Sequence record: PZ445514.1
DNA length: 64,000 nt
Direction: 5' to 3' (one strand)
Source: a phage
Shown here: positions 2,176-64,000 of the stretch, piece after piece
How the letters are laid out: every line of letters begins with the position of its first letter
How positions within the stretch are numbered: the first letter of the stretch is position 1
Translations under genes and position numbers: made by a program
The notes under the pieces: model-generated
Database searches by the model: none
What the model saw: the letters and a program-made list of their open reading frames with translations, nothing else
Told to the model about the DNA's origin: nothing

Positions 2176-2207
2176 GATTTTATCCTCTTAGTGTCTTTTG
2201 TGCTTTT

Positions 2208-2236
2208 AGTGTATTTGGTGTCGGACTATATGTCAA
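2208..2236 (-). promoter_or_regulatory. candidate sigma70 promoter (TTGACA -35, 17 nt, TACACT)
   Basis: Consensus -35 with weak -10 upstream of gene starting at 2175. Confidence 0.3.
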
Positions 2237-2239
2237 TAC

Positions 2240-2437
2240 CTATTTTTTATTAAACCAGTGGTTGATCTGGCCTTTTGTCAGGGCGCAACGATTAAGCTGT
2301 TGCCGGGTATAGCTCTGACCGCGACGGAATTTATAAAGGCCTTGCCCGTTGTTGATGGTTACGTCCGCCTGGCAAACCATTTGATCGGTGACGGCCTGGC
2401 GAGTGTTGCGACGTACTTTAATTCCGTAGGCGTTCAT
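2240..2437 (-). CDS. hypothetical small basic protein
   Basis: 65-aa ORF with the same GAGGATAAAAT-ATG context as the neighbouring gene. Confidence 0.5.
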   Translation of the reverse strand: MNAYGIKVRRNTRQAVTDQMVCQADVTINNGQGLYKFRRGQSYTRQQLNRCALTKGQINHWFNKK

Positions 2438-2524
2438 GATTTTTATCCTCTCTGTTAATTAGTGTGGTGTTGTTCACCTTGCGAGGATAAGAATAACAGA
2501 ACTATCCGAGCTGTCAACCATTGG

Positions 2525-2695
2525 TTAGAATTTTTTTGGTAAGAATTCTCCAGCCGCCGCCCCTGCCAGGTTAACCATCATTTTTTCGTACTCTTCTTTA
2601 TGTTCCAACGCTCCCGCCATAGCCTTTTCAACCAGGGCGATAGCCTCAGCGTCATTAATAGCTACATTTTCCAGGGGGATCATATTACCTTTCAT
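2525..2695 (-). CDS. hypothetical small protein (56 aa)
   Basis: Short ORF not in ORF track; strong GAGGAGG 7 nt upstream of ATG at 2695. Confidence 0.4.
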   Translation of the reverse strand: MKGNMIPLENVAINDAEAIALVEKAMAGALEHKEEYEKMMVNLAGAAAGEFLPKKF

Positions 2696-2699
2696 TTTT

Positions 2700-3650
2700 G
2701 TACCTCCTCTTCAATTGTTACCTATCCTATAGCATAGGCCCACCAGGTTTGCAAGCCTTCATTCTCTCCTACCTGGTCAGTTAGGTCCTGCCAGGCTGGC
2801 CCCGCCAGGTTGCAGCGGTCAGCGCATCAGGTTAGAAAAATTTTTTTGAAAAGTGTTGACAGCGGCCCCGCCAGGTGGCACAATATACCTATCGAAAGGA
2901 CGGCAGGCACCGGTGACGGGGAGACAACCACCGGGGATGGGCGCTGCATAAAATGAGAACGGTTATCATTATCGTCTAAAAATTTATGCAAAAACTTCTT
3001 GCTTTCTTTGTCCTGTGTGTTACTATAATAACAAGCCGGGGCAGTAGGGGCCGGGAGACAATCACCGGGGGTGCCCGTTATTCTGCAAACGAGAATGATT
3101 ATCATTCAAAATTCTAAATGAGAACTTTTCTCATTTCATAAATTTAGTTAGCATGCTAATTACCTACCGTGACAATTCTATATAAAATAATACCTCCTAA
3201 AATATTTCCATATACAAATTTTAAAAATCCATTTCCGAAAACGAAAAATCGCTTTCGTTCCCAAAAATTTTAGACCTGGTGCTGGACCAATTTCAAGAAA
3301 ATCCGATTCAGAAAACGAAAAACAGATCGAGTACTGAGAAGTTTATCGAGAAAAATTTTCAGAAAATTCAATCTTTGAAACGAAAAACAGATCGAGTACC
3401 TAGAAAGCTGCACCGCAATTTCAAGATGGTGGTTAGATTATTACCATAAAAGGTCAAGGGTGAGTGGGAAAGTTCTGGTAGAGGGGTGTGAGCATACGCG
3501 GAAAATCTAGAATGGTAGTCCGGAATATGGTGCAAACGATAGGATGAGTGGTTCAGCTCGTCGTGCCTACTCTGAAAAAATCCATTTTAGTTTTCGATCC
3601 ATTTTCTGATTTTCTAACAATTTTAAAATATCTGGCCGGGTGAAATATCA
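2700..3650. repeat. ~1 kb non-coding region with several families of short direct repeats and hairpins
   Basis: No RBS-supported ORF; repeats GAAAACGAAAAACAGATCGAGTAC (x2-3), AAATCCATTTT (x4), GGCCCCGCCAGGT (x2) and two related hairpin-containing ~60-bp units near 2900 and 3040. Confidence 0.55.
2856..2884 (+). promoter_or_regulatory. candidate plus-strand promoter (TTGACA, 17 nt, TG-n-CACAAT) reading into the non-coding repeat region
   Basis: Consensus -35 with extended-minus-10-like TG; no protein gene downstream on the plus strand. Confidence 0.3.
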
Positions 3651-3651
3651 A

Positions 3652-3682
3652 AAGGAGGAAATCCATTTTAGAAATCCTCCTT
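3652..3682 (-). terminator. candidate stem-loop terminator
   Basis: 8-bp inverted repeat AAGGAGGA/TCCTCCTT with T-rich tract after it on the minus strand; downstream of gene ending at 3712. Confidence 0.35.
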
Positions 3683-3711
3683 ATACTTGATATGTCAGAA
3701 ATTTTCAAGTA

Positions 3712-4041
3712 TCAGCTATCTTTGTTTTTAGGTTTATACATGCGGAGAGGTATAGTCTTTGTAACATTCCATTTACTCAACCCTTCCCAGCTCCAGTTGT
3801 GGGCATGGTATCCGGTTATGCATGCACTGCTGGAGTGATCGTAAGCATAAGAGAACGCTAAGCGCACCAGGTGAGGCCAGTCTTTCCACGGTTGTGGTCC
3901 GTAAGCTTTTCTCCAACACCGACACAAACTAAATGTCTCAAGAATAGGCAGGATAACAAATCCATACACCGCCACCAGAATAGCCAGCGCAATGATTGTC
4001 AGGAATACATACCCTGCAGTTGAAACGATGATCTCTGTCAT
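3712..4041 (-). CDS. hypothetical membrane protein
   Basis: 109-aa ORF with N-terminal transmembrane helices; stop/start overlap with next gene. Confidence 0.55.
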   Translation of the reverse strand: MTEIIVSTAGYVFLTIIALAILVAVYGFVILPILETFSLCRCWRKAYGPQPWKDWPHLVRLAFSYAYDHSSSACITGYHAHNWSWEGLSKWNVTKTIPLRMYKPKNKDS

Positions 4042-4235
4042 TTGTCGTCCCCTTTCTTACGGATATAGATGTGAGAGCCTGCCTGTATATAAATTTCTCG
4101 ACCATCTTCTGCAAAGATATGAAATACACGATCACCTTCATACTCGATACGTGATATCTTCATAATGGTCTTTCCACCTGGGATGCGGATCTCGTCCCCC
4201 ACAGCGATGTTCCATGCAGATTTAAGCTTAAACAT
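4038..4235 (-). CDS. hypothetical protein
   Basis: ORF-track start at 4241 is GTG; ATG at 4235 follows AGGAGG by 6 nt. Confidence 0.55.
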   Translation of the reverse strand: MFKLKSAWNIAVGDEIRIPGGKTIMKISRIEYEGDRVFHIFAEDGREIYIQAGSHIYIRKKGDDK

Positions 4236-4473
4236 CTGCACCCTCCTTTGGGAACTTAAACTCTGGCATAGCCATATACGCTACAACAGGGTTGTGATCA
4301 AAGTAGAACTGACCGTTAATTATCCCGGTTTTGTCCACATAGTTACCAGATCCTGCAAGAACAACCTCGCAAGCTCCGAAATCCACATTGCCATCCTCAT
4401 CAGCCATGGCTACGATATACTTTCCAAGAGGCATGTTTTTAACGCCGTCTACAAATGTCCACCCTTTGTTCAT
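4228..4473 (-). CDS. hypothetical protein
   Basis: 81-aa ORF with AGGAG 7 nt upstream. Confidence 0.55.
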   Translation of the reverse strand: MNKGWTFVDGVKNMPLGKYIVAMADEDGNVDFGACEVVLAGSGNYVDKTGIINGQFYFDHNPVVAYMAMPEFKFPKEGADV

Positions 4474-4493
4474 ACTTTATCTCCTGCATTCTC

Positions 4494-4826
4494 TTAAGGT
4501 AACCAGTAAACAATCTCGCCTTTCAGCTTCATGTCGTTTCCAACATAAATTTGCCAGCCATCCATCTTAGCAGCTGCAGGCCCAAAGTCATCCGCACCCC
4601 TTACCTCTTTCCAGGTCCCGTAGTCAGGTTGCCAGATGTAAAATCCACCTTCTTTGTCCCATGCTCCATACACTACGTTTAACAAGTTTCCCATTGCAAC
4701 AATAGTGGGCCGTGGGAACAATGCATCTACAGATGCGCCACAATATCTGGTATCTTTTAAATTGCACTCCCAAAAGATGTCTGCCAGTGTGGCGGCGATA
4801 GCTTTACGTCTTTCTAATGTTACCAT
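4494..4826 (-). CDS. hypothetical protein
   Basis: 110-aa ORF, weak RBS, tightly packed in operon. Confidence 0.5.
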   Translation of the reverse strand: MVTLERRKAIAATLADIFWECNLKDTRYCGASVDALFPRPTIVAMGNLLNVVYGAWDKEGGFYIWQPDYGTWKEVRGADDFGPAAAKMDGWQIYVGNDMKLKGEIVYWLP

Positions 4827-4833
4827 ATCATAC

Positions 4834-5025
4834 TCACTTGTTGTTAATAAGTTCTAAAACTTTCTGTCTTACCTTATCAATATCTGTTGATTCAAAAACT
4901 GTACGATATCCCCAACTTTGCCCATAAGAATGGCTGCAATCACCATAACACCATTGCTCAATTTGATAGTATTCAAGGAACGGGTGCTGTCTAACTATGA
5001 TACCGTCCCGGTTAAAAATTACCAT
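4834..5025 (-). CDS. hypothetical protein
   Basis: 63-aa ORF immediately downstream of a consensus TTGACA/TATAAT promoter. Confidence 0.5.
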   Translation of the reverse strand: MVIFNRDGIIVRQHPFLEYYQIEQWCYGDCSHSYGQSWGYRTVFESTDIDKVRQKVLELINNK

Positions 5026-5056
5026 AATACATCACTCTCTGTTAGTTTATGCGTAT

Positions 5057-5084
5057 ATTATACACTGCAGTTTTCAGATGTCAA
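5057..5084 (-). promoter_or_regulatory. sigma70-type promoter (consensus TTGACA -35 and TATAAT -10, 16-nt spacer)
   Basis: Minus strand reads TTGACA-16 nt-TATAAT about 30 nt upstream of the gene starting at 5025. Confidence 0.5.
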
Positions 5085-5088
5085 CCTC

Positions 5089-5283
5089 TTACAGATTGCT
5101 CCAGTACAATCGGCATTTACATTTTGGGCAATGAGGTTCTTTTATGTAATAACCGTCAGTCTTTGGAACACTTTTTGGTGCAGTTTTAATATTGTACCTG
5201 GTAAAACATCGGAAGCAGGTTACCTCTCCAATCTGTTGATCGTTGATCCACTCGCCAGAGTAAAGTTCTTTCTTGTTCCTCAT
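5089..5283 (-). CDS. putative zinc-ribbon protein
   Basis: 64 aa with CxxC...CxxC pairs (CFRC, CPKC); GAGGAGG upstream. Confidence 0.5.
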   Translation of the reverse strand: MRNKKELYSGEWINDQQIGEVTCFRCFTRYNIKTAPKSVPKTDGYYIKEPHCPKCKCRLYWSNL

Positions 5284-5492
5284 AAGCCCTCCTCAGTCCT
5301 CCAGAACAAATACCAACTCTCCGGTAAATGTTTTTGCAAAGTAATAGCCTGAACATTCATCACTTTTGTACAGCCACCACGTGTCCCAGTCAGGAAGTCG
5401 TACAAGGATATGCTAGGCCCATCTATTACTGGGTATTCTTCAAACGGCCCTTGATTATCCGATTGCGTGGACACACATATGCAGGTTTTCAT
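5280..5492 (-). CDS. hypothetical protein
   Basis: Start moved to internal ATG preceded by GGAGA 7 nt; ATGA overlap with upstream gene. Confidence 0.45.
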   Translation of the reverse strand: MKTCICVSTQSDNQGPFEEYPVIDGPSISLYDFLTGTRGGCTKVMNVQAITLQKHLPESWYLFWRTEEGL

Positions 5493-5659
5493 GCCAGAAT
5501 CTCCAGCCAGAAAGCGCACGGGAACACTTTGATGATTGAATCTTTACCCGGTTCGGCAGTTCTTTTTCCGTAGGGTAGGTAGAAATACCCTCCTGCAGAT
5601 TCGAACACAGCCCCTTCGGTTGTATCTATCACAGCTAGAATTAAGATTTTAGTCTCCAC
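5489..5659 (-). CDS. hypothetical small protein (56 aa, GTG start)
   Basis: GTG preceded by GAGAGGAGAG; stop overlaps start of next gene; not in ORF track. Confidence 0.35.
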   Translation of the reverse strand: METKILILAVIDTTEGAVFESAGGYFYLPYGKRTAEPGKDSIIKVFPCAFWLEILA

Positions 5660-5713
5660 AGTGCTCTCCTCTCTTAGTTGTTGTGGAAACTATATCACCT
5701 CAGAAGATGGTCG

Positions 5714-6172
5714 TCAACACTTTTTGTACTCTACTACAACCACATCAATATCTGTGGTTGCAAGATTAATTACATCTTCTACATGTTCCCACTTTAGACC
5801 GCCAATACCGCATCCGATTTTAGGAATGTAGAACGGCAATGACACACCTTTGAATACCTCGTTGACTCGCTCAAAACCTTTCATGATTGAGAAGTATTCA
5901 GCATTGGGCCCTGGGTAGAACTGGGTATACAGGTTGATTCCATATACGACCCTGTTCTTGGCAAAATGCTCCCAACAAGAAAACATACCCAGCTTGTCTA
6001 GATTCCCATAAGCAGTCTCTTTGTCGGCTGCCAGTGCTTGAGGGAACTCACGGGCAATATCTTTCGCTATGCCTGCACCCATTGTGTGAAAGCAGTTACA
6101 ACCGTGGATCATGTGGCCTGACCCTTTCTTGAAAATGGAGATTAGATCTCCCTTTACAGTATCAATAATCAC
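5714..6172 (-). CDS. macrodomain protein, OARD1/TARG1-like putative ADP-ribose hydrolase
   Basis: By-eye match to OARD1/TARG1 signature from memory: VKGDL, H-x-C-N, MGAGIA, PKIGCGIGGLKWEHV; start uncertain (GTG at 6172 with GAGGAG upstream, or ATG at 6211). Confidence 0.7.
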   Translation of the reverse strand: MIIDTVKGDLISIFKKGSGHMIHGCNCFHTMGAGIAKDIAREFPQALAADKETAYGNLDKLGMFSCWEHFAKNRVVYGINLYTQFYPGPNAEYFSIMKGFERVNEVFKGVSLPFYIPKIGCGIGGLKWEHVEDVINLATTDIDVVVVEYKKC

Positions 6173-47786: not shown

Positions 47787-49859
47787 TTATGAGAAGTCTG
47801 GCGGGACAACATCTTCTACATACCCTTTCAGAGCAACCTGCCCCATATGAAGCACGGTAGAATCTCTAGCGGTAACAGTGATGCTGTCAGACATTACTTG
47901 CGGGTATGCCCACACATACTGTTTTACCTCAGGGTATCTATACTCTATAGTTGCCATGTTTCCGCAAATACATCTCCATAAAAATTCTTGGTAATTCCTA
48001 GTTGGGTCGTAGCCATATACCGGAGCAAGCTCTTTACTAGGAACGAACCCTGCAAGGTATTGTATTTCAGACGGTTGCCAACCTAACTTAACGATAGGTA
48101 TGTTTACAGACTCTTTTGCCTTTTCAATACCTCCCTGCATCACCCAATCGTAGCACTCGGTGCAGAAGAAATCAAGAGCACCTGCTTCCTTTTTATATTG
48201 GTCAGCAAGGTTCAGCTTTTGTGTAAGCTCAGTTTCCATAATGGTTGGGAAAAACAACAAAGCTGTCATCTGAGCTGATGCAGCGTGTGCCTTTATTGCC
48301 TTTGAAATAGCCGCAATACGAGCGCCAAGCTTACCACGACAAAATGCTACATACTTGTCGTAAACACCGCCAGTTTTAGGATCGTCAATAGTCCCAATAT
48401 CTAATGCATACTCACCTGTCTCATCATAAAACGCCTGTTTTGTAGGGTAATCATAAATACAAGGTCTACGAGTATCGGTATTGTACCACCACCACGGTTC
48501 ACCAACCTGCATAATCACTGGCAGGTTGTTTCTCATAGCGGCTGATGCAAAATTCTTAAATACTGCAGTAAGGAAATTCATACCCTCTTCAATGGTTGGA
48601 GACAGGAGGTAGCTACAAGGTGTATACCCTGTTTTAGCGTAGTTATCGTTCCAGTCTCTTTGGGTCCATTCCAACGGGCAGGCATCGCTGAAAAGCTCAA
48701 AACTTACAGATTGCATAACGTCGAAGTTATGTCGTTTGGCATTGTACATAAAATCATCATGCCATTTATAAGCTGCAGCGTTTAGCGCTCCTGTTCTGTT
48801 TATAGACCATTGGGTTCCTGACCATGTGTAGTCATAATAATGACTCATACCAACATAATGGTTTATGGTTCCGGTATAGCCCAGACGCTTGATATTGTTC
48901 AACACCCTTAAAGGAGATACGTTCCACATATCGTCATATGCGGTGCAGATCCCAACGTCGTGCTCTCTCACCTGAATATTGTTAAGTTGCATCATTTTCC
49001 AGCCTGTGTCTGGCTGAAGCAGATCTAGGCGCAACTCACACTCTACGTTTTCCGTTCTCGGGTCTGTGCTGTTACTTACCCAGTCTTTAGGCATAAGCGG
49101 TATTAAAATCCTTCTCACCTGCCGAGGATCAACACCCATCATGCTGTTGTTCTGGTCCATCCCGACGCAGTCCTCAAAATCAATATGAATTTCTGCAACA
49201 TTCTTATCCTCTGAGATGCTGACAGCATATTGAGCTAAAGGAACATAGATGATTGTGCCATCAACAAGGTCTACAGTCATAATCATCTTTTCAGGAGTGG
49301 AGAAGTTGCTGGCGTTGGTTATTGACATTCTGAACCAAAGCTTGGTATTTCTCATCTCATAATGATCATCAAACCCAATACCGAAATGATCATACTTGTC
49401 AACTGTTTCCCAAATGCACCCGGCCATACCTCCATATGTTCTTGACACTAAACGGTTAATACAACAGTTATTATCTGCAACAATACAGGTACTTTCAGTC
49501 TGCTGAGTAGTTGTAACCCAATATCTTGGGTGGAACATTCTCTCCTCAACAGTATCCCAAGATATCCTGTCAAGATTCTCATCTGAAACTATTGTACATT
49601 TCGCCCTTTGTGTTCCAATCATCACCCCTTGGGATTTTGATGAAAACTCCATAAAGAAGCTTCTTGGCAACCTATTGGGTAATTTGTCAACAATTTCCAC
49701 CGGGATCTCAATACTGGTTGCCCCAATTGGGATAGTTACATCGCCCTCAACATGATTATAATCCCTACCAGGAACGGCAGTATCCTGAACTGTTCGGTAA
49801 TGAAACTGTGCAGCCATTGTAGAGTAATCACGGTAAGGTTTAAAAACAGCTGTTGCCAT
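47787..49859 (-). CDS. putative tail/baseplate-associated protein
   Basis: 690 aa; N-terminal Calx-beta-like segment GDVTIPIGATSIEIPVEIVD; W/Y-rich; function unknown. Confidence 0.55.
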   Translation of the reverse strand: MATAVFKPYRDYSTMAAQFHYRTVQDTAVPGRDYNHVEGDVTIPIGATSIEIPVEIVDKLPNRLPRSFFMEFSSKSQGVMIGTQRAKCTIVSDENLDRISWDTVEERMFHPRYWVTTTQQTESTCIVADNNCCINRLVSRTYGGMAGCIWETVDKYDHFGIGFDDHYEMRNTKLWFRMSITNASNFSTPEKMIMTVDLVDGTIIYVPLAQYAVSISEDKNVAEIHIDFEDCVGMDQNNSMMGVDPRQVRRILIPLMPKDWVSNSTDPRTENVECELRLDLLQPDTGWKMMQLNNIQVREHDVGICTAYDDMWNVSPLRVLNNIKRLGYTGTINHYVGMSHYYDYTWSGTQWSINRTGALNAAAYKWHDDFMYNAKRHNFDVMQSVSFELFSDACPLEWTQRDWNDNYAKTGYTPCSYLLSPTIEEGMNFLTAVFKNFASAAMRNNLPVIMQVGEPWWWYNTDTRRPCIYDYPTKQAFYDETGEYALDIGTIDDPKTGGVYDKYVAFCRGKLGARIAAISKAIKAHAASAQMTALLFFPTIMETELTQKLNLADQYKKEAGALDFFCTECYDWVMQGGIEKAKESVNIPIVKLGWQPSEIQYLAGFVPSKELAPVYGYDPTRNYQEFLWRCICGNMATIEYRYPEVKQYVWAYPQVMSDSITVTARDSTVLHMGQVALKGYVEDVVPPDFS

Positions 49860-52152: not shown

Positions 52153-55100
52153 TTAGTCGTGAGACTCGTTCCAAGGTCCTTGGAAACTAGAGTTAGAACG
52201 GCTTACCACAACAGTAGGACAGGATATTGCAACCCCTGTTACAGAAGACGTTGACCATGGTGTGTAGATTTCAACAACAATATCTATGGTTTGTTCACCA
52301 AGACCTGTTATCCCTACCGCACACATGCCGTTGTTGTCGTTTCCGTACTTCTTACCTGCAAGGATTTGATGTCCGGCTATCCAAACGTTAAGCTGGGAGC
52401 CAGACAAGGTTCCGTTTAGTTTAAAGAAGAATGTTACGTTCTTACCTTGTCCTGAAACGTTGTCCACATATCTCCACCTCCAACGGCAAACCCTCTGCTG
52501 CGAGTTATATACTGGAGGACAGTCACCGTAGGTTCTGTGTGCAACTATTGCACCTTCGAACTGGTTAGCACGGATAACAGAAGCTTCTACACGACCACGG
52601 AAGGTACCTCCGGTTGCATCTATGGTGCCTCTAAAGCTACCATTATTGGCATAAACATCCCCACGGAAGGTACCACTAGTGGCGTTAACTGCCCCTGTGA
52701 AGTTACCAGAACTGGCGTTGATGTTGCCTTTCACCCACACATCCATAAATTGGGCGTGCCCGTTCTTGTTAATATACCAACCGTATTTATGGTACCCGTT
52801 GCCATCGTAGTTGTTTGACGAAATTTCTTGTGCAATCTTGGCAGAGGAGATCGTGCCATTCTCTATAAAAGCGTCTTTCAAGAACGCTTGGTTGTTCTTG
52901 ATTGCGAAAGCAAGGGTTGCTGTTCCATTTCCAGGGTTGTATACCGCAAAATTATTTGCACTAACCATGAAGTAGGATTGAACTTGGCCCCCAGACCCTT
53001 CCATCCCCAGCTGGATACCTGCAACATATTTATTCCCTGCGGAGTCTACCTGTATTTTTGTGCCCCACTGAGCGTTTACTTTACCCTCTAAGTCGGTTAC
53101 AGCCTTAGATGTTGTAGCTACTGCAGCCCTGATCTCAGACACATCCCCAACATCGTCAATGATCTCCTGCTTAGCAACAGCAAGTTCTTGACGAATAGCT
53201 GACGCTGTGCCGTTGATAAGGTCCACAGTGGCTTTGTTGGTATCGGAAATTGTAGCATCCAGCGCTGTTTTTGTGGAGGTCAGTTTTCCATCCAAAGCAT
53301 CAATCGCTTGCTTGTTGGTAGAAATCTCCCCACGTGCAGAAGTTATCTGCTCTGACAGTGCAGATGTTTTCTGATTCAGCAAGTCAGTTGTGGCCTTGTT
53401 GGTATTGGCAATCAAGGTGTTGAGGTCAGTTTTTGCGGTAGTTATCTTGCCGTCAAGGGTGGTATAGTTTTTAGATACCGTCGCGTTTGTCTGACTAATC
53501 TTTTGATCCAGAGTTTCAGATGTCCTGTTCAAAAGATCTACAGTGGCTTGGTTAGTGCTCAAGATGCTTGCGTCAAGTTCTGTTCTCTGAGTATTGATCT
53601 TACCATCCAGAGTTTTATCTCCGGCTAAATACCCGCTCTCAACTCCCTCTATCTGCTCTACCAGCTCACCTTTGGCGGCAACCAATTTCTCATCTAAAGC
53701 CTCTGTCTTTTTGTTCAGAAGATCAGTAGTTGCTTTATTGGTTGTCTCAATCAGGGATGCCAATCTTCCACTTTCAGTGTTCAGATCGTTGGTGAACTTG
53801 TTCTGTGCAGCAACAAGTTTCCTATCCAGCGCTGTGATATTGCCATTGACATCCTCAAACTTCTGAGTTGTCTCTGTAACTACCGCACCTATTCTGTCTC
53901 CAAGTTGCTGGAATGCCTCATCTACCCTACCATCCATGTACCTGTTAAGTTCTGTGACCCTATTTTCAACCTCTTCAATAGATGAATCTAAAGTGCTCAT
54001 CAACTCTTTATAAGTTTCTGTCTTTTTAAATTCAGCATCTATCTGAGGCATCAAATCCTCAATAGAGGTGTAGCAGCGTGCAGCGCATTCTACAAACTGA
54101 GAACTACCAAAAGCGTTTGTGGTTCGAATATACCAATAATAAACCTTATCGTTCTGCAGACCTTCAGATGTCCAAGTTGAACCAACACCCATACGGGTGG
54201 CGTTTGAAGTAACGGTTGCATCACTGGTGTCGGGCAACCTTGTCATACCGGATGTCCAAAAGTCATACTGGGTGCTAACACTTGCTAAATCCCTACTATG
54301 CGGAATCAAGGTGATAGCAAAGTATCCTTGCTTAACCTCTACAGAAACCGGAGCTTCAGGTGCCTGAATGTTAAACTCACAATACGCTTCTGGAGATACA
54401 CCACCTTTATAAGATGTTGCAACCACGGTTGCTGTGTATGACCCTTTTGTCAAACCTTCTACTCTGACAAACTGCTCAACTGTCTGTGCTGTCCAAACAA
54501 TCTCTCCGTTCTTTCTTACCTGCACAATATTTTGAGCGTAAGTCCCAACGTTGTCCCAGGCCAAAACACCGTGAGTTACTTCCCCAGCTTGGAGAACGGA
54601 GTATCTGAAGTTTTGCGGCTGAGCCACACCGGACGGGGATATCGGAATATCTACATCGCCGGAATCCGGAAGTTGCCCTGTGGCATCATTCCACTCTTTA
54701 GCATCTTGACGAAGTTTTACCTTGACACCGCCCTTTTTGGTGAACTCCCATTCAAGAACCCTCATTTCTTGGCCCACTATACCAATACTTGGGAGGTCCA
54801 TTGTAACATAACGGCCAGGCTTAAATTTAAAACCTCGCATATTGCAGGTGACTTCAATAATCCTGCCAGCTCTAGCACGTCTTAAGAAGATTGCAGAAAC
54901 ACGTTGAGCTTGATAAGGGCTGGTAACAAAGCGATAGTCTATATCGATTATCTTTCTTTCTCCATCCTTCTCTATCCACTCTGGGACAAACACTGATGGA
55001 AAATCTGTTTCAGAATACCCTTTGGTCGGGCTAGTGAATCTGCCAGTTATTGTGTTGGATCTTTTGTCAAATGAGGCTTCCGGATAGATCTTAACCTCAC

Positions 55101-55992
55101 CGCAGACACAGTCCTCACTCAGTGTCATCGTTGCCGGACCATAGTATGCACCAACCAGCAAACCATACTTACCAGCAACATAACTAAGATCTGCACCGCA
55201 AGCTTTCAGCATTTCTGCCATAATACTTGCTGGGGCCTCATCCATGTCAAACTCACCGTTAATGGTGTAACGTCGCTCACTGGTCCCGTCAGCGTTTTTT
55301 ACCGCCTCGTCGCATATGTTGGCAGCCTCCTTGAAGGACTCCCAGTTGATGGTTTCGTCAGGACATTTAAGGTACGTTCTTAAATAGTCCAGGATCACCA
55401 AGGCTGCGTTATTGGTGTATACCTCTTTACTGATACGAGGATCATAGCATTTTTTACCAACCTTAACGAGTGTAACGTTTGGCAACCCAAAAGGAAACTT
55501 GTTAGGGTCAAACTTGAAACTGGCACGTAGCCAACTGATCCCTCTACCTATCATGTCGGGTGACCATGATGGGCAGTGTGTACCCATGAAAGGATCAGAT
55601 GTTTTTCTGTCGTTATGTAGCTCCCACGATACCAGATCTCCATACGAGGAAATAGGATTACCGTCGATGAGTATGTCTTCTATACCTTCCAGAGGATGAT
55701 TAGCAAGAACAATAGCACAATGGAGGGTTCTGTCGCTATCCTGCTCCAAAAACGCAAGCAATCCGGATGTGCGTGTCTTCCCATACACTACAGAGCAGGG
55801 TGCAGCAGAAGATCTGAGAAGCTTTTGTCTATCTTGCTGACTTCTGTAAGATTTGTTGCCCTCAAAAATCTTATCCAGAGTTCTGGTGGTAACAGTGTTC
55901 AGGCTGTCAGCCAGAGCTGCCTTGGATGCGTTCCAGTCATAACTTGAAGATCTTGCAGAAGCAACGATGTTATCAATCATTGCAATTGGCAT
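52153..55992 (-). CDS. tail tip / host-specificity protein, lambda gpJ-like
   Basis: 1279 aa; J-like N-terminal domain, FN3-like segment YYWYIRTTNAFGSS, four coiled-coil repeats containing ATTDLLN, C-terminal Gly-rich domain. Confidence 0.75.
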   Translation of the reverse strand: MPIAMIDNIVASARSSSYDWNASKAALADSLNTVTTRTLDKIFEGNKSYRSQQDRQKLLRSSAAPCSVVYGKTRTSGLLAFLEQDSDRTLHCAIVLANHPLEGIEDILIDGNPISSYGDLVSWELHNDRKTSDPFMGTHCPSWSPDMIGRGISWLRASFKFDPNKFPFGLPNVTLVKVGKKCYDPRISKEVYTNNAALVILDYLRTYLKCPDETINWESFKEAANICDEAVKNADGTSERRYTINGEFDMDEAPASIMAEMLKACGADLSYVAGKYGLLVGAYYGPATMTLSEDCVCGEVKIYPEASFDKRSNTITGRFTSPTKGYSETDFPSVFVPEWIEKDGERKIIDIDYRFVTSPYQAQRVSAIFLRRARAGRIIEVTCNMRGFKFKPGRYVTMDLPSIGIVGQEMRVLEWEFTKKGGVKVKLRQDAKEWNDATGQLPDSGDVDIPISPSGVAQPQNFRYSVLQAGEVTHGVLAWDNVGTYAQNIVQVRKNGEIVWTAQTVEQFVRVEGLTKGSYTATVVATSYKGGVSPEAYCEFNIQAPEAPVSVEVKQGYFAITLIPHSRDLASVSTQYDFWTSGMTRLPDTSDATVTSNATRMGVGSTWTSEGLQNDKVYYWYIRTTNAFGSSQFVECAARCYTSIEDLMPQIDAEFKKTETYKELMSTLDSSIEEVENRVTELNRYMDGRVDEAFQQLGDRIGAVVTETTQKFEDVNGNITALDRKLVAAQNKFTNDLNTESGRLASLIETTNKATTDLLNKKTEALDEKLVAAKGELVEQIEGVESGYLAGDKTLDGKINTQRTELDASILSTNQATVDLLNRTSETLDQKISQTNATVSKNYTTLDGKITTAKTDLNTLIANTNKATTDLLNQKTSALSEQITSARGEISTNKQAIDALDGKLTSTKTALDATISDTNKATVDLINGTASAIRQELAVAKQEIIDDVGDVSEIRAAVATTSKAVTDLEGKVNAQWGTKIQVDSAGNKYVAGIQLGMEGSGGQVQSYFMVSANNFAVYNPGNGTATLAFAIKNNQAFLKDAFIENGTISSAKIAQEISSNNYDGNGYHKYGWYINKNGHAQFMDVWVKGNINASSGNFTGAVNATSGTFRGDVYANNGSFRGTIDATGGTFRGRVEASVIRANQFEGAIVAHRTYGDCPPVYNSQQRVCRWRWRYVDNVSGQGKNVTFFFKLNGTLSGSQLNVWIAGHQILAGKKYGNDNNGMCAVGITGLGEQTIDIVVEIYTPWSTSSVTGVAISCPTVVVSRSNSSFQGPWNESHD

Positions 55993-56417
55993 TAATACCT
56001 CCAGACATCAACAACGATAGAATCTTTCATGTCGAACATAAAGACCCCTTTATCACCTTTCGCCCAAATCTGGTTGTTCCAGAACACACCAGCGGTGAGC
56101 CCGTTCAGACCCTCGAAGATAACAATATCGCCACGCTGAACCTGTTTAGGAGTATCTAGTCGAGTCATAAAGAGATCAAAAATAGTAGGCAGGTGTGTGG
56201 TTTTGAAACGGAGCATGCACCATCTTTTGCTTTCCAACTCTGTTTTATACGTTCCTTCGAAGTTAGAAAGAAAATCTGTTCCGTATTGGGCATCAACACA
56301 CTTAGCTGCAAAGGTGCAGCAATCGTGGAATCCCCATTCAAAAGGTATGGTGGCCTCTTCGTCAAACACTTTCCACAATCTTTCTTGCCAATCCACTAAA
56401 CGAGGGTGTGTGCTCAT
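55992..56417 (-). CDS. putative tail-associated NlpC/P60-like protein (gpK-like position)
   Basis: 141 aa; possible catalytic Cys context FHDCCTF; directly upstream of J-like gene. Confidence 0.5.
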   Translation of the reverse strand: MSTHPRLVDWQERLWKVFDEEATIPFEWGFHDCCTFAAKCVDAQYGTDFLSNFEGTYKTELESKRWCMLRFKTTHLPTIFDLFMTRLDTPKQVQRGDIVIFEGLNGLTAGVFWNNQIWAKGDKGVFMFDMKDSIVVDVWRY

Positions 56418-56968
56418 TAAACCTCCCAAATGATCGGGCGGCTCGCCACCTGATCCACATATTTAAAAAATCTGTCATTATCGTTTCTTGAGCTGTGGCT
56501 TTCCTCCGTGTACCGATAAGGAAAACCTCTTAACCAACTGTTGAAGATGGAAGAGATGGATATGGACAAAGCACTATTCTCCCCTGTCTGAATAGCCATA
56601 TCTGTTATAAGGCCGTCAAACAAGCCATTAGTTGTGACAGGCAGACCATTCTCCATAGCGGTAATGTACAACGTGGCACGACAACCAGAATACTCCGTCT
56701 TCAGCAGATCACCCACATACTTAGGATCAAACCCGTTCAATGTTGCTACCACAGATCCGAAGTTGGTGGCATCTTTCTCAGACACAGCAGTTAATGTTGC
56801 TGATCCCCCTATCCCTATAAAATGTTGCCCCTCAATTACCACAACACCAGTGCCTGAGCACACCCTGACAGTTCCTGTCGGTAGCTCCAGCTTTGCAGCA
56901 ATTAAGATCTCAACACCATCAAGCTCCAGCTTTTCAAGAAATAAATTATCTAATGGCGCTCTGATCAT
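56417..56968 (-). CDS. putative minor tail protein
   Basis: ATG at 56968 after GAGGA; ORF-track start is TTG; position in tail-tip cluster. Confidence 0.5.
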   Translation of the reverse strand: MIRAPLDNLFLEKLELDGVEILIAAKLELPTGTVRVCSGTGVVVIEGQHFIGIGGSATLTAVSEKDATNFGSVVATLNGFDPKYVGDLLKTEYSGCRATLYITAMENGLPVTTNGLFDGLITDMAIQTGENSALSISISSIFNSWLRGFPYRYTEESHSSRNDNDRFFKYVDQVASRPIIWEV

Positions 56969-56969
56969 C

Positions 56970-57560
56970 TTAGAAATCCTCAAAGAAGTTGATAACTATA
57001 TTATCACCTTTTTGCATAGCATCGACTTTTTGCTTAATTTTATAAATATCTCTGATATGAAACCTACCCTTCGGGGATTGAGTTATTATCTTCATAGTGT
57101 CCCCTGCGGCAATAGGTTTTCTAAGTCTTGGAGATATGCTTATAACAGCAGACCCAACACCATCGCTACGCACTGGAGCTGTTACCACTTTCAATTCATC
57201 ATTGACAGATATTTTATCCCCAGCTCTGGCTATGTCTCTGTTTGGCTCCCACCCAACCGTCTTCAAAAAATCGTCGTTACCAGTAGGCCCAAGGGCGATT
57301 GGCTCATTAGCTGTAACTGAGTGACCGTAAGTTTTAATAAGAAAGATGTTTCCATCTTTATACACCTGATCAACAAAGCTCTTAAGCTCTAGCAACTGTG
57401 ACTCGCTGATATTGGAAACCGTCAAAGTGCCTTTCCAGTTAGGTGTGGCATAGGTTACTTTTTGCGTTTTACCTGTAAACGGACTTTTAAACGTAACAAT
57501 ATCTGCCAGCAGCTCCAATCTAATATCTGGAAGGTATCTAGGCCTTTCCCATAAAAACAT
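56970..57560 (-). CDS. putative minor tail / distal tail protein
   Basis: 196-aa ORF with GGAGG upstream; first gene after terminator at 57626-57652. Confidence 0.5.
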   Translation of the reverse strand: MFLWERPRYLPDIRLELLADIVTFKSPFTGKTQKVTYATPNWKGTLTVSNISESQLLELKSFVDQVYKDGNIFLIKTYGHSVTANEPIALGPTGNDDFLKTVGWEPNRDIARAGDKISVNDELKVVTAPVRSDGVGSAVISISPRLRKPIAAGDTMKIITQSPKGRFHIRDIYKIKQKVDAMQKGDNIVINFFEDF

Positions 57561-57625
57561 TGTGCCTCCAGGTTAAACAATCATGATAGCTATTTTACCA
57601 GATTTTGAGTTAATACGCAATACAA

Positions 57626-57652
57626 ACAAAAAGCCCCCGCCGAAGCGAGGGC
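57626..57652 (-). terminator. rho-independent terminator
   Basis: Minus strand GCCCTCGC-TTCG-GCGGGGGC followed by TTTTTGTTTGT; downstream of S74 fibre gene. Confidence 0.6.
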
Positions 57653-57659
57653 AGAACAG

Positions 57660-60600
57660 TTACTTCAGTTTCTCTTGCAATCCAGTAACAACCTCTGTCA
57701 ATTTTTTAACCTGCTCCTCAAGGGCGGTTATTTTATCGTCCTGTTCCCTGCAAACCTGGACAAGCAAGCCTGTTACAGCTGCGTAGTCAACGTTATAGAA
57801 CCTTTCCTCGGTCATCAGAGGAATACCGTCTTGAGTAGGACCTTCTATTTCCTTCCTTTTCACGAAAGATCCTACTGCCTCTGGCAATGCTTCCATAACC
57901 TCTTGAGCAATCACGCCTGCATAAGGCATACCATTCTCTTTCAAGGTGTAGGTATAGCCTTTCATCTTTCTAATTGCTTCCAGAGCGTTAGGTATGACCT
58001 CTATATTATCCTTCAGGTCTCTATCGGAACTTTGGCTAACAGTGGTACATTCTACCGTGCCGTTGACAGCAAAATATCTTGATTTAGCCTCATCTGCCTT
58101 AGCTCCGCAGTGGAATACCCAGCTGGCGGCTGTTGAGTTATCACTTATCTGAAACTCAAGCACATTCTTCCTATCAGCGCCATTACCCCAATAGTACAAC
58201 CTGCCTGTATTAGAAGGCATGTTCGAAGTGTTGGTAACATCAGTACCACCACCTGTGTGTATTGTGAACTCAGGTTCAAGATTGGACCCTTGAGTTTTTA
58301 AAGTGATACCCTTACCGCCAAGCTGCTGCCAATGGCCCCATGTGAAAACACCACCTATCGTTGTTCCATAACGCAGGAATTTTTCTCCAAGATATGTTGT
58401 ATATTCCTGTACGCAACTCTCTGGAACGTTGGCATAGTTTCTATAGACAAGGAGAGTACCTGCCTGAGAGCATGGGTAGTTTCTATCAAGTGCGGCTTGA
58501 GCATTGGCCTCCTGATGATAAAAACCCTCTCTATCTCCTTTGTAGTCGTTAAGGTCATTAGTTCCCAACCCTTGTCCACGGTGCTGAATAACTTTGTTCC
58601 ACGCTCTGTGGTTTCCCTGCTCTATGGAACGAGTGTACAGCTGGTCTAAACGACCTGCCATCTGGAAAGCGTAGTTTCCAGAAAAACCAACCGACAACCC
58701 TGCTACAACCATGGAACCTTCAGGTCCGTTGACGTTACCAGCCATTATTTTAGAAGGGTTGTTATTCCCGAACTGGTTGTTCCAGTCTGCACCTGTGTGG
58801 CATACAAAACCACCAGGAGCTGAGAAAGTGCCATCTTTGTTGAAGTTGTAGAATCTGTGAGCAGAACCTACAACATCACGAACAATAACTTGACCAGCCT
58901 CTGGAGTAGATCTGAACTCTGCCTGACCTTTGAGACCAGCACCATTACCGCATTTAGAGGTAAACGTACCGTTAGTCAGATCCTCTGTCCCATCGGATGC
59001 ACACTGGAATCCTGCATTAGAGAATAACGCCCTTCTAGGACTGCCGTAGCACAAATAGTCAAGGCCGTCTGCCCATAGCTCGACTTTTGGCATATTCATT
59101 TTGCTCATCACAGCATAGCGTTCAGCAGTGCCTATATAGTGCCACTGTGTGCCGCCACCAGTGTAGAACCCTGAAGTACCTTTGAAGTCAACAATAGGTC
59201 TGGTATTGGTGTTGTTATCTCCAAGAATAGCAAGATTCAAATCTGCTGACTGAAGAGGTGCAACGAACTTAACCCCATCCTGATTGTCTGTTACAGCCCC
59301 GACCTGGTAATCTTGCTCTCTGGTAAACACTTCGACAACATTTCTACTTGCGTATATGCTGACAGGGAAAGCACGAGCCTCTACATAGAAAGCAACATAC
59401 TCTTGTTTACCCCTTGTTGGAGCAACCATCCCAAGAAGTGCTTTTTCATTCTGGTAGAAATTTACTACCCCGTAGAAAGAGTCTCCCCTGTCCGTCCAGC
59501 CACCAGTTCTATAGTGACACTGCAGGGTGGCACAGTTCATAGGGTCATTTCCAGATGAAGACCTGGTGACTATGGTAATATCTGTACCTGTCGAAGGGGC
59601 GTAATACGGATCTGTTCTAACGATAATTGGGTAGTATTTCCCATCTTCCATCCCTGCGGTTCTTGGCAGTGTCAAGAAGTCTTTTACACCTGCTGCTATA
59701 GGAACTTTGAACAGATTCTGAGCATCTGCTAAAGTTGTAGCCCCAGTGCCGCCTGCGGCTTGAGGTAAAGGTTCCCACTTGGCCTTCCGGTTGTTATAAA
59801 CACCCCATTCCAGAGTGCCGTTACCGGATTCGTCCATCCCACCATCCCAGACAACCATCTTGGCGGCTTTCTTAGACCCCCAGAAGCCTCTTTCTGCCCC
59901 TGAACTACGGATCCACTCTCCAAGTCCCCAGTTTGTCAGCTGACCAGTAAGATCCCCAACCTGCATGTATTTAGGGCAGTCTAATACACCGTCTTCGCGG
60001 AAACCCAAATATCTATGAGTTTCAGATCCTTTTGCACCTTTGTGCAGGTGGATTGTCAACCAAGCCTTATTGTCGTTTCTTACTTCAGAGTAGATCCTAT
60101 ACCCGTGCTCAAGGACACCGTCAGCGCTGTATTTGTCCCCGTTAACAATACCTGATGCCGACTTAACATCAGCAGAACTTTGAGACAGGTAAAGGTGCCC
60201 GAAGGTAGGGGTATTTCTAGGCCCAAGACCGATGTGCGATCTAAAGGTATCATCGTTACGAGGTCTGACCATCGGCTGCCATGCAGTCCACTGGTTTGTG
60301 TTGGCCTGATAGGTTCTCAAATACCAAACATCTACGTTAGAGAATGGATAGTATTCCTGACGACAACCTGTACCGCCGTTAGCATTGTTCTGCCAAACAA
60401 TCAAGTGACCAGCACCAGAACCTGCAGGGTAACCATTTGCCTCGGTTGCATAAGCAGTCATCGGTTGGTAGTATACACCATCCTGATTACCAGTCAAGTT
60501 ATTGATATTGAAATTTGGCTCAAGGGCTGCACGTTGCTTATAGAAAGCCCCCAAGTTAATGCGTGCACCTGCGGCATCCCTGGCACCTGTACCGCCTTGC

Positions 60601-61460
60601 TCTATAGCAAGAGGTTGCCACGAGGCTGTTTGTTGGTTCCACATGCCCCAACGGCCTGTTGCGTCAAGCTGCAAGTACCCTGCCGTGTTTAAGTCATCTC
60701 CAGCACGGATAACTGTTCTTGTTGGGTTATTTGCCTCTAGGCGTTTAAATTCATCACGAAGTGCTATTCTTTTTGTTGTTGCCACACCGTTGGTTACTGC
60801 AATGGTATACATGGCTCCTGAAGTAGCGCCACGGAAAATACCATCAACAGTTGTAGTATCACGACGAGATACCACACCATTCAGAAATTTTTCACCAGCT
60901 GCTACAGAAGGGTAGTTGGTAGTTCTTCCCTCTTCAATAACTGCAGGGCCAACAAAGTTATCAAGGTGAATAACATCGCCTACAGTGTGCACTGTACCAA
61001 AATCTACACGCTGTGCAAGGGCTTTAGCATCGTTAGCTGTCTGAACAGTAACATCCATTACATCCTGGACAGACTGCCCTTCGGCTGTCATAATCATAGA
61101 TGCGCCAATGGTAGATTCCAGCTCCTCCCTTAAGGACGGATCTGTATATACCATCCATGCAGCGTCAGTAATCCCACCATCGGAGTACGGTGAAGATAGT
61201 GCAGGGACAGTGTGTGGAAATTCGCCTTTCCAACGCAGGTAGAGGTCTTCCTCTTCGAAGTAGGCAAAATCCATTGGGCCGTTTAACTTACCACCTTCCT
61301 TAAAGGAGATTACATGAGAAACAGTCCCATCCACATGGACAACATCGCCAATTTTTACACGACGAGTCAGGTCTGGTTGTTGAACAACCAGGTAATCATC
61401 CTCTGTCACTGCGGTAGTGGCAGGAAGAGATTCAATTCTGACAACTTTAATATCAGCCAT
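57660..61460 (-). CDS. tail fibre/tailspike with C-terminal intramolecular chaperone (peptidase S74-like)
   Basis: 1266 aa; C-terminal SDRDLKDNIEV...GYTYTLKENG...GVIAQEV followed by coiled coil matches the auto-cleaving chaperone of L-shaped fibres and endosialidases. Confidence 0.75.
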   Translation of the reverse strand: MADIKVVRIESLPATTAVTEDDYLVVQQPDLTRRVKIGDVVHVDGTVSHVISFKEGGKLNGPMDFAYFEEEDLYLRWKGEFPHTVPALSSPYSDGGITDAAWMVYTDPSLREELESTIGASMIMTAEGQSVQDVMDVTVQTANDAKALAQRVDFGTVHTVGDVIHLDNFVGPAVIEEGRTTNYPSVAAGEKFLNGVVSRRDTTTVDGIFRGATSGAMYTIAVTNGVATTKRIALRDEFKRLEANNPTRTVIRAGDDLNTAGYLQLDATGRWGMWNQQTASWQPLAIEQGGTGARDAAGARINLGAFYKQRAALEPNFNINNLTGNQDGVYYQPMTAYATEANGYPAGSGAGHLIVWQNNANGGTGCRQEYYPFSNVDVWYLRTYQANTNQWTAWQPMVRPRNDDTFRSHIGLGPRNTPTFGHLYLSQSSADVKSASGIVNGDKYSADGVLEHGYRIYSEVRNDNKAWLTIHLHKGAKGSETHRYLGFREDGVLDCPKYMQVGDLTGQLTNWGLGEWIRSSGAERGFWGSKKAAKMVVWDGGMDESGNGTLEWGVYNNRKAKWEPLPQAAGGTGATTLADAQNLFKVPIAAGVKDFLTLPRTAGMEDGKYYPIIVRTDPYYAPSTGTDITIVTRSSSGNDPMNCATLQCHYRTGGWTDRGDSFYGVVNFYQNEKALLGMVAPTRGKQEYVAFYVEARAFPVSIYASRNVVEVFTREQDYQVGAVTDNQDGVKFVAPLQSADLNLAILGDNNTNTRPIVDFKGTSGFYTGGGTQWHYIGTAERYAVMSKMNMPKVELWADGLDYLCYGSPRRALFSNAGFQCASDGTEDLTNGTFTSKCGNGAGLKGQAEFRSTPEAGQVIVRDVVGSAHRFYNFNKDGTFSAPGGFVCHTGADWNNQFGNNNPSKIMAGNVNGPEGSMVVAGLSVGFSGNYAFQMAGRLDQLYTRSIEQGNHRAWNKVIQHRGQGLGTNDLNDYKGDREGFYHQEANAQAALDRNYPCSQAGTLLVYRNYANVPESCVQEYTTYLGEKFLRYGTTIGGVFTWGHWQQLGGKGITLKTQGSNLEPEFTIHTGGGTDVTNTSNMPSNTGRLYYWGNGADRKNVLEFQISDNSTAASWVFHCGAKADEAKSRYFAVNGTVECTTVSQSSDRDLKDNIEVIPNALEAIRKMKGYTYTLKENGMPYAGVIAQEVMEALPEAVGSFVKRKEIEGPTQDGIPLMTEERFYNVDYAAVTGLLVQVCREQDDKITALEEQVKKLTEVVTGLQEKLK

Positions 61461-61495
61461 TCTTTCTCCTGAAAGGGGGCAAACAGCCCCCTATG

Positions 61496-64000
61496 TTAAA
61501 GGTACAATCCACGGTATTGAGCATAAAGGCCCAGACCGCGAAGGATTTCGCCAGAGTGATAGCCAACCGGATCAGAAACTGCCCAGCAGCCGTTTAAAAT
61601 ATTATCCCCATTAATGAAGTGGTGCTTTTGCAGTAGCTTCACACAGGCTTCTACAACAATATCTATTTGAGGTATTGTCTCTGAATACCCGCACAGACCT
61701 AGCCAGCAGCAACCTGCAAGCCATTCACCTACCACCCACATCCTGTCCCCTCTGTCTTGATAAGAGTATCCCCCAGAGGTGTTAAAGTCTGTAGGCAGAT
61801 TTCCTGAATGAGATGACTGGAATCTGTTGAGGAACCATGCCCATTTCTGGCAGAACAGGAATAGTCTTTCATCAACAGGTTCTTTATGTTTCTTGAGCTC
61901 ATATATTGTGCGGCACGCAGCAACAAAAGATCTTGACTGTAGTTTAGAGTTATCTACCATCTCCCACCAACCAGTCAGCCCTTCATTGCCTCTCTGCCAT
62001 ACATAACGCGAGGCAACTGGACCTTCTGTCTTAAATGTATTGTTATACCAGACTTGAGCGTCATACAGAAAGCCTATTGTATTTGACAATCTATGGCGAT
62101 CTATGTTTTCTGCACCCATGCAGTAGACTGCTGGGTATTGCATGCCAGGGTAGGGCCAATTTGGCCTTTCCTCCAAGAGATAGTTTTCCTTATCTATCAC
62201 CTTTCCGGCAGGGAACACACCGGGTGTGTGCCTGTATGCACCTTGCTTGTAGTTTCTGACATAGCAATCGCCAACCTTAGCGGTTGATTCTGTCTTGCTT
62301 GCCATCCATACGCTAAACCAGATTAGATAAGCATCCCTATCTGCAATATAAAATTGCGGCAGTGTGTTGACGCAATACAGATCAAACAAGCCATTACCTA
62401 TCTGCCTGTCGCTTAGGCTGAAATCTACAGAGGTGAGCCCCTTAGGATTAGCAAAGAAAGGTTTAATCTCTTCTTCGGTGTGATGAGGCTGTGTCGGATC
62501 TAGTTTGAAATCTCCTAGAGTAAGAGTTTCTGTTATCCATTGTCCATTAGTGGCATATAGATCAGCATACCATAACCACCTGTCTTTGTCAAGAAATTTG
62601 ACCCTTACCATCTCATCATCTGATCGATAAGTTACTGAGTTTAAAGAAATCTCTCTTCCAAAATTGAAAGTTACTTTACCTCTTGCTATATTACAACGGG
62701 TGAAGTTGTCAGAGTGGTTGTAAATGTCGGTATCATACTGCAGACTAACACTAGCACCACCGCTTACGGCAATGTTTTCCTCTTTAGGTAAGAGATACGG
62801 ATTACCGTCTTTACCAACTACCTCTACGAAATCAGTGACCTTGGCAACTATTTCTGTTACCTCTGCCCCTCCAAAAGGAACCCCTATCCTGTACTGTTTT
62901 TTGTTATTGTTGCCATCATTAAGGATGAAATGTGGCTGGAACAGAACCCCTTCTCCTCCGAAATTCATAACAATTTCAGCATCTCTGCCTATTTTGTATG
63001 TAGTCCCTTTTTGAATTATTTCGCAAGGCTGGCGTGCGTTCATTCTAAAATTGATATACCCGTCACTGTCCCTGCTCATGACAGGAACTGTTCCTGCAAC
63101 AAGACAAGTACCATCTGTGAACGGTGCCTTAATCAACGTGGTCTTCCTAAACAGTTTGTCGTAGGCGTTTATATCACTGAAATTAAGCAACTTGTTGTAA
63201 GACTGTTTAAACGCGGTGTAATACTTTTCCTCACCTGTCAAGGTGTAGAGTTGATAACAAGCGTCACACCACATTTCTTCCCCGTCCAACTCCGGGGCCT
63301 GATTATCTGCAACCACGTTTATAGGATTTACAATTACAGGGGATCCTGCAGGTATCACCGATCCACCCTGCTCTTGAGGTAATCTTACACAATAGGTCAC
63401 CTTGTGGCTGCCTGTAACACCCTTATCTTGTAGTTGGATTGTGCCGAACTCTACAGACGTATGACCACTGTCGGCTATGCTACCGTTAGCCCAATAGCGG
63501 TTACCATCCCATGCTATATACCACTCAACCCACCAACTTAATCCGGATGTTGTCCAATCTGGGTTAGCATCTGTACCACCGTAAACATCAGAGTCTACAG
63601 TGTTTCTTCCTAACACACCGTTATATGCTTGGAATGCCTTGTCCAGGTATTCTCCCCATGTCGGAGATCCAGCTGGGATTTTTCCTCTACCATTAGTAAA
63701 AGACACCACCACATCTTTAAACCCACCATGTGATGGAACCCCATCTGTGGATAGAGGGTAGTGGGACAATCTTTGCATTTTACTTTCTACTGCATATGCA
63801 CCCAGAAGATGACTATTGTAAGCTTCCCAAGCATCTTTTGCCCTATCCAAGTAGAAATCGCTTTTCGATGCCCTGTATGCCTCAATGTATCCCAGAATCA
63901 ACACAGCTTGGGACTCATGCATTGCCCAATCATTATTTATCTTATTACCTGCCCACCCTGCAGCTATAAGACCATCAGGGTTTACTAGCTTATTTTGTGT
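61496..64000 (-). CDS. hypothetical W/Y-rich structural protein, N-terminus beyond window
   Basis: Frame stays open upstream of the ATG at 63922 to the window edge and that ATG has no RBS, so the true start is probably outside the window. Confidence 0.55.
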   Translation of the reverse strand, partial: TQNKLVNPDGLIAAGWAGNKINNDWAMHESQAVLILGYIEAYRASKSDFYLDRAKDAWEAYNSHLLGAYAVESKMQRLSHYPLSTDGVPSHGGFKDVVVSFTNGRGKIPAGSPTWGEYLDKAFQAYNGVLGRNTVDSDVYGGTDANPDWTTSGLSWWVEWYIAWDGNRYWANGSIADSGHTSVEFGTIQLQDKGVTGSHKVTYCVRLPQEQGGSVIPAGSPVIVNPINVVADNQAPELDGEEMWCDACYQLYTLTGEEKYYTAFKQSYNKLLNFSDINAYDKLFRKTTLIKAPFTDGTCLVAGTVPVMSRDSDGYINFRMNARQPCEIIQKGTTYKIGRDAEIVMNFGGEGVLFQPHFILNDGNNNKKQYRIGVPFGGAEVTEIVAKVTDFVEVVGKDGNPYLLPKEENIAVSGGASVSLQYDTDIYNHSDNFTRCNIARGKVTFNFGREISLNSVTYRSDDEMVRVKFLDKDRWLWYADLYATNGQWITETLTLGDFKLDPTQPHHTEEEIKPFFANPKGLTSVDFSLSDRQIGNGLFDLYCVNTLPQFYIADRDAYLIWFSVWMASKTESTAKVGDCYVRNYKQGAYRHTPGVFPAGKVIDKENYLLEERPNWPYPGMQYPAVYCMGAENIDRHRLSNTIGFLYDAQVWYNNTFKTEGPVASRYVWQRGNEGLTGWWEMVDNSKLQSRSFVAACRTIYELKKHKEPVDERLFLFCQKWAWFLNRFQSSHSGNLPTDFNTSGGYSYQDRGDRMWVVGEWLAGCCWLGLCGYSETIPQIDIVVEACVKLLQKHHFINGDNILNGCWAVSDPVGYHSGEILRGLGLYAQYRGLYL

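Follow-up and report, generated by a model that had tools for sequence, protein, structure and literature searches.

A lateral tail fibre gene of an rV5-type phage whose C-terminus is a predicted self-cleaving S74 chaperone

A stretch of 64,000 nucleotides from a phage (sequence record PZ445514.1; hereafter the window) carries on its minus strand, at 57660..61460, a lateral tail fibre gene that is an allele of rV5 gp41. The gene opens with an ATG codon, 5 nt after an AGGAG Shine-Dalgarno ribosome-binding site (61466..61470, minus strand) read directly from the sequence, and encodes 1266 amino acids plus a stop codon, giving a precursor of 138.7 kDa. By comparing the gene and its product with related phage fibres, and by modelling the end of the protein, we conclude, with a probability of roughly 90%, that it is one lateral tail fibre of an rV5-type myovirus (rV5 gp41) whose C-terminal 122 residues are a self-cleaving chaperone of the S74 type.

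The assignment to rV5 gp41 rests on full-length homology and on position. PHROG 6578, the rV5 gp41-type family, covers residues 1-1266 with 1753 bits, and the gene lies between the orthologues of gp42 and gp40, in an order that is syntenic with rV5, WalterGehring and MaxBurger. The window DNA is 100% identical to Escherichia phages rV5_ev147 and ev156 (the former, a Vequintavirus, labels the gene 'tail fiber protein'), and it shares 88-98% DNA identity with many Vequintavirus genomes, which label the gene tail fibre or lateral tail fibre. The rV5 protein itself, gp041 (YP_002003543, 1272 aa), is 88% identical in amino acids to the window fibre. Vequintavirus orthologues (rV5 gp41, CM1 orf40, MaxBurger bas54_0027 and WalterGehring bas51_0027) occupy the equivalent gene and position at 86-99% identity and have in common with the window fibre an N-terminal anchor, a shaft and an S74 C-terminus; the window allele has 1266 residues whereas those of rV5 and MaxBurger have 1272, and the main divergence is confined to residues ~941-1144 (49-60% identity). 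The window allele is essentially of the WalterGehring/CM1 type. Plus-strand open reading frames inside the fibre gene (57675-58082, 58332-58649, 60180-60692 and 60559-60915) had no PHROG match and were taken as chance frames, and an Rfam scan of 56900-62000 returned no RNA family.

The fibre gene is also carried, at ~90-94% identity, by 18 records named 'Campylobacter phage'; in four of these (MG065646, MG065647, MG065674 and MG065635) the match extends over 83-100% of the gene or protein. One of them, MG065635, whose positions 67370-73513 are the locus L007 discussed below, bears the mark UNVERIFIED and is assigned to Vequintavirus. These records look like E. coli rV5-like phages, and their host label is doubtful.

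The C-terminal intramolecular chaperone (peptidase S74) spans 57663..58028 on the minus strand, that is residues 1145-1266, the last 122 of the 1266, and was recognized by Pfam, Foldseek and phmmer. Pfam PF13884 (Peptidase_S74) matches residues 1145-1196 over profile positions 1-57 of 58 with 55.5 bits (E 7.1e-15), where the curated gathering cut-off is 22 bits; the match is far beyond chance expectation. Profile position 1 falls on Ser1145, the residue at which SDRDLKDNIEV begins, 122 residues before the C-terminus. A phmmer search found S16 gp37 (6F45, E 8.5e-5) and MyRF (7DC3, E 0.005).

Residues 1037-1266 were modelled with AlphaFold2 from a 57-homologue alignment. The model has a mean predicted local distance difference test score (pLDDT) of 77.9, with ten-residue block means of ~72-97 in the chaperone, and places beta-strands before that domain. 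The monomer so modelled agrees with the chaperone fold, in which a small alpha/beta part is joined to a long C-terminal helix. This terminal helix is unbroken over 40 residues (1226-1265, or model residues 190-229; 57666..57785, minus strand) at pLDDT 93-97, and it is expected to form the trimeric coiled coil of the chaperone. Foldseek comparison against the PDB gave ten matches at E <= 0.001, all in three entries whose top hits had a probability of 1.00: 3GW6 (K1F endosialidase, endoNF), 7DC3 (the ICA domain of MyRF) and 3GUD (the GA-1 appendage chaperone), with TM-scores relative to the target of 0.51-0.59 for 7DC3 and 3GUD. The best structural match is the K1F chaperone 3GW6, the founding MEROPS/Pfam S74 member, which has Ser-Lys chemistry and a terminal helix in common with the window chaperone, although its cargo is a sialidase tailspike and not a fibre tip, and the sequence identity is only 14%. 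Thus a sequence-only reading of this DNA, which had placed an S74-type chaperone in the C-terminal ~120 residues, is borne out by the profile match, the position of SDRDLKDNIEV and the fold, and the coiled coil that it drew after this segment corresponds to the predicted continuous helix.

The predicted scissile bond, Ser1144-Ser1145, lies at 58026..58031 (minus strand), with Ser1145 (58026-58028) as nucleophile and Lys1150 (58011..58013, minus strand), five residues further on, as general base of a Ser-Lys dyad. In pairwise and multiple alignments alike the two residues fall on Ser1264 and Lys1269 of T5 pb1, such that the xS-D-x-x-L-K junction of T5 (Thr1263-Ser1264...Lys1269) aligns with Ser1144-Ser1145...Lys1150 of the window fibre, and they also coincide with the SSDRxxK motif of S16 gp37. 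Among the 57 homologues of the alignment (27-80% identity), the Ser, the Asp and the Lys of S-D-x-x-L-K are each present in 55. The sequence-only reading had proposed alignment to the S74 profile and location of the dyad as a check, and this check found the dyad at Ser1145 and Lys1150.

What the dyad does is best documented for T5 pb1, in which the chaperone is severed at the Thr1263-Ser1264 bond, with Lys1269 activating the serine, and an S1264A mutant is uncleaved; Arg1250 from the adjacent chain ties cleavage to correct trimer folding, and the tip inhibits adsorption only in its cleaved form (PMC4690869). By analogy, the C-terminal chaperone helices of the window fibre would trimerise, seed the folding of the fibre tip and set its register; after correct trimer formation, Ser1145 activated by Lys1150 would cut Ser1144-Ser1145 in every chain, freeing the 13.7-kDa chaperone (residues 1145-1266) and leaving a mature chain of 125 kDa (125.1 kDa computed for residues 1-1144) with its tip unmasked for receptor binding. 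The predicted mature chain would end in the semi-tryptic peptide YFAVNGTVECTTVSQS (residues 1129-1144), and DNIEVIPNALEAIR is a peptide within the chaperone segment (residues 1145-1266). A possible counterpart of the T5 sensor is Arg1097 (58170-58172), whose WG..R motif aligns with the WGSGR of T5 (Arg1250) and is kept in 38 of the 57 homologues; we regard the equivalence as tentative.

Several points weigh against the self-cleaving chaperone as just described. The gene, the domains, the dyad, the fold and the terminator are established in the present analysis; the cleavage of the window fibre is predicted, and cleavage, the order of events and the unmasking of the tip would follow from the precedents of T5 pb1 and K1F endosialidase. 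The AlphaFold2 model is of a monomer only, with the trimeric coiled coil an expectation, and Arg1097 stands 48 residues before the serine, compared with 14 for T5 Arg1250. That cleavage is a prediction and that the candidate sensor is off the canonical distance would suit a domain that is kept in the virion: it might be a trimerisation module that does not cleave, or it might be cut yet remain attached non-covalently, as a cap, up to contact with the host; transient chaperone caps have reportedly been described for other phage fibres. We nevertheless consider retention extremely improbable: the Ser, Asp and Lys of SDxxLK are intact and near-invariant, and the presumed MaxBurger orthologue lacks density for the domain.

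In cryo-electron microscopy (cryo-EM) of MaxBurger, the S74 domain of RBP_11, the fibre that bears it, showed no density (PMC12143355). We infer that RBP_11 is bas54_0027, because the latter is the syntenic orthologue of the window fibre at 86% identity and because no S74 domain turned up in any other large fibre protein tested in the window locus; the identity is neither stated in the paper nor confirmed by accession. With the orthologue so identified, the predicted loss of the S74 segment from the mature fibre agrees with the MaxBurger cryo-EM; against this must be set the 7-9 A resolution of the maps (PMC12143355), and flexibility of the distal end might equally account for missing density. 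Mass spectrometry of rV5 virions detected eight gp41 peptides (8.1% coverage), the last of which ends at residue 1073 of 1272, so that all eight precede the cut, a weak argument against retention. As coverage is sparse, however, the chaperone peptides would be missed by luck alone with a probability of ~0.45; the peptides therefore do not decide the processing, and the table was set aside as evidence for it.

If the chaperone is released, the mature fibre would consist of an anchor, a long shaft and a distal tip. The N-terminal anchoring domain is of the TSP1/Gp66 type (Tail_spike_N, PF18668; residues 46-103, 61152..61325, minus strand; E 2.1e-10, 41 bits against a cut-off of 25), and the homology of the anchoring stretch reaches to about residue 143; solved tail fibre and tailspike chains (9occ_G, 9lna_A, 9d84_A and 4qnl_A) match this stretch with their N-terminal portions, and the domain presumably anchors the fibre trimer in the baseplate fibre network. 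The shaft that follows carries two knob-like domains and two W-x-P-L...GGTGA segments before ending in the variable distal tip (residues ~1041-1144). The first knob-like domain (residues ~318-397; 60270..60512, minus strand) is an internal repeat of the second (residues ~969-1047; 58320..58559, minus strand), the latter being 60% identical to the rV5 reference allele. BLAST self-comparison of the fibre gave no internal repeats, and Smith-Waterman alignment with shuffled controls was needed to detect them: the knob-like domains score 101, compared with 28.8 +/- 5.3 in 500 shuffles of which none reached that score, and the W-x-P-L...GGTGA segments (residues ~265-300 and ~546-581) are a duplicated pair whose score is likewise far above shuffled controls. 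A 'pyocin knob' pseudo-domain has been described for this class of fibre (PMC12143355).

The distal tip of the mature fibre (residues 1041-1144; 58029..58340, minus strand), which holds the WG..R motif, is the most variable segment of the protein. Identity over residues 1-940 is 93-100% to rV5 and 82-100% to MaxBurger, and to the same two alleles it is 60% over residues 941-1040, 49% over 1041-1144 and 90-91% over the chaperone. The tip is modelled as beta-strands, with pLDDT of 75-87 from about residue 1086. The most variable part of the fibre is thus the part that cleavage would expose, as would be expected of a receptor-binding end, which the tip is presumed to be.

The exposed tip may alternatively offer a docking site to a separate gp38-like adhesin, the arrangement of Salmonella phage S16, whose distal long tail fibre protein gp37 requires gp38. 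The sequence offers a reason to consider it: among solved structures S16 gp37 (6F45) is closest in sequence to the C-terminal region and gives the best match at the tip-chaperone junction, where it has the SSDR.LK motif, and MaxBurger may use a gp38-like adhesin, as the authors of its structure suggest (PMC12143355). The same study, though, reports no adhesin density, and the element directly 3' of the window fibre gene is a terminator and not an adhesin gene; no gp38-like partner was identified for the window fibre, the rest of the genome not having been scanned for gp38-like genes. The tip before the cut is moreover the most variable part of the protein, at 49% between alleles, which suits direct contact with a receptor over a conserved docking surface, and the cleaved T5 tip competes for the receptor by itself (PMC4690869). 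A docking role of this kind, following S74 cleavage, is in our estimation very unlikely, and we retain a cleaved fibre whose tip itself binds the receptor.

Direct BLASTP against T5 pb1 was not significant (E 0.2, at the junction only), so the link to T5-like fibres was made through the Tequintavirus fibre JLBYU43_159, which is 34% identical over 1122 aa (E 7e-154), a homology reaching well past the chaperone, and through the multiple alignment. T5 pb1 and the window protein are both long lateral fibres with an S74 chaperone at the end and WG..R upstream of it; they differ in that 47 residues separate the Arg from the Ser in the window fibre compared with 13 in T5 pb1, and in that the N-terminal anchor of the window fibre is of the myovirus/tailspike type, unlike that of T5 pb1. 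The chaperone of the JLBYU43_159 fibre is 70% identical to that of the window (57663-58028, minus strand, compared with locus L003, 1784-5533), while the remaining length is 19-39% identical. On the sequences compared, this similarity points to horizontal exchange or to an unusually strong constraint on the chaperone.

The locus L007 in MG065635 bears (1501-5940, plus strand) an alternative fibre allele of 1479 aa that is 93.7% identical over residues 1-1046. Its N-terminal domain is as in the window fibre, but its head of ~430 residues is unrelated, gives a weak concanavalin-A-like hit and lacks S74; this lectin-like-head allele of Vequintavirus is probably of the EmilHeitz RBP_10 type. Since the two alleles have residues 1-1046 in common and the L007 head is unrelated and lacks S74, the tip and the chaperone together constitute an exchangeable cassette. 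Many of the closest database relatives of the chaperone are short E. coli proteins (~250-390 aa) labelled 'tail fiber domain-containing', some of them on megabase-scale contigs and so probably prophage fibres. A bolder proposal is that the cassette (residues ~1041-1266) moves as a unit between unrelated kinds of virion (rV5-like myoviruses, T5-like siphoviruses, prophage fibres of E. coli), and that its hypervariable tip, after cleavage, docks an adhesin or recognizes a receptor new to Vequintavirus fibres; we think this unlikely. Were it true, the conservation of the chaperone (70%, compared with 19-39% for the rest) would imply a constraint beyond folding, such as a second role of the released fragment.

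The chaperone domain, its mechanism and its presence in the rV5 gp41 protein family are already published. Kropinski et al. in 2013 reported that the C-terminal domain of rV5 gp41 is similar to 3GW6 and, by PCOILS, has a coiled coil (PMC3606486); in 2019 the paper on phage CM1 noted that its 1266-aa orf40 resembles T5 pb1, the K1F chaperone and the S16 receptor-binding protein (PMC6832132); and the RBPseg paper of 2025 names the S74 domain as one found in Vequintavirinae fibres. The present result accordingly has little value as a discovery, and its practical use is in annotation and engineering. With the predicted cut, the receptor-binding end of the mature fibre should be annotated at residue 1144 and not at 1266; host-range differences between alleles would map to residues ~941-1144; and in fibre-swapping designs the tip should travel together with its chaperone.

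Downstream of the fibre gene is a Rho-independent terminator (57623..57652, minus strand), composed of GCCCTCGC-TTCG-GCGGGGGC followed by TTTTTGTTTG. Its hairpin (57652..57633, minus strand) begins 8 nt after the stop codon and has 8 bp, 7 of them G-C, with a folding energy of -16.9 kcal/mol (z = -3.9) that was equalled by none of 200 shuffles; the sequence is identical to that of the published rV5 terminator t041, given as -19.8 kcal/mol (PMC3606486). Past the terminator lies a putative late-promoter-like element for the downstream gp40-gp37 cluster (57577..57613, minus strand; TTAACTCAAAATCTGGTAAAATAGCTATCATGATTGT), read from the sequence, which agrees at all but 2 of 37 positions with P040, a putative late promoter published for rV5 (PMC3606486). 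Four minus-strand genes follow, at 56970-57560, 56417-56983, 55992-56429 and 52153-55992, the last encoding a J-like protein of 1279 aa. The sequence-only reading had described the fibre gene as lying upstream of a J-like tip cluster and as terminated independently of it, and the gene order and the hairpin confirm both statements.

The cluster 3' of the terminator (52153-57560, minus strand) is a siphovirus-style tip module in a myovirus. Besides the J-like protein, which carries a long coiled-coil insert as well as Ig_J and Phage_Tail_Tip domains, the module has a DUF6950 protein (labelled 'cell wall hydrolase' in BASEL), a distal-tail-protein-like gene (PHROG 1302) and a tail protein (PHROG 2048).

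On the other side of the fibre gene, a G+C-rich hairpin (61474-61492, minus strand; AGGGGGC-UGUUU-GCCCCCU, -15.1 kcal/mol) separates the upstream fibre's stop codon (61496) from the ribosome-binding site of the lateral tail fibre gene. It was rejected as a terminator, having no U-tract and being not significantly stabler than shuffled sequences (z = -1.86, equalled by 14 of 200 shuffles); it could act as a weak attenuator, stabilise the RNA or have no function. The upstream gene (61496-64000, minus strand) is the rV5 gp42 orthologue and is open at the window edge, with an 808-aa reading frame compared with 865 aa in relatives; BASEL labels it a lateral tail fibre with glycosidase domains, and it had no Pfam match at E <= 0.01. 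Further along the window, at 47787-49859 (minus strand), is a 690-aa protein with strong matches to the N4-type non-contractile tail sheath domains TIM-barrel_NCTSP (E 4e-80) and NCTSP_N, and with a Calx-beta domain; it is the deacetylase-type fibre, linked in the literature to ECA or NGR glycan recognition.

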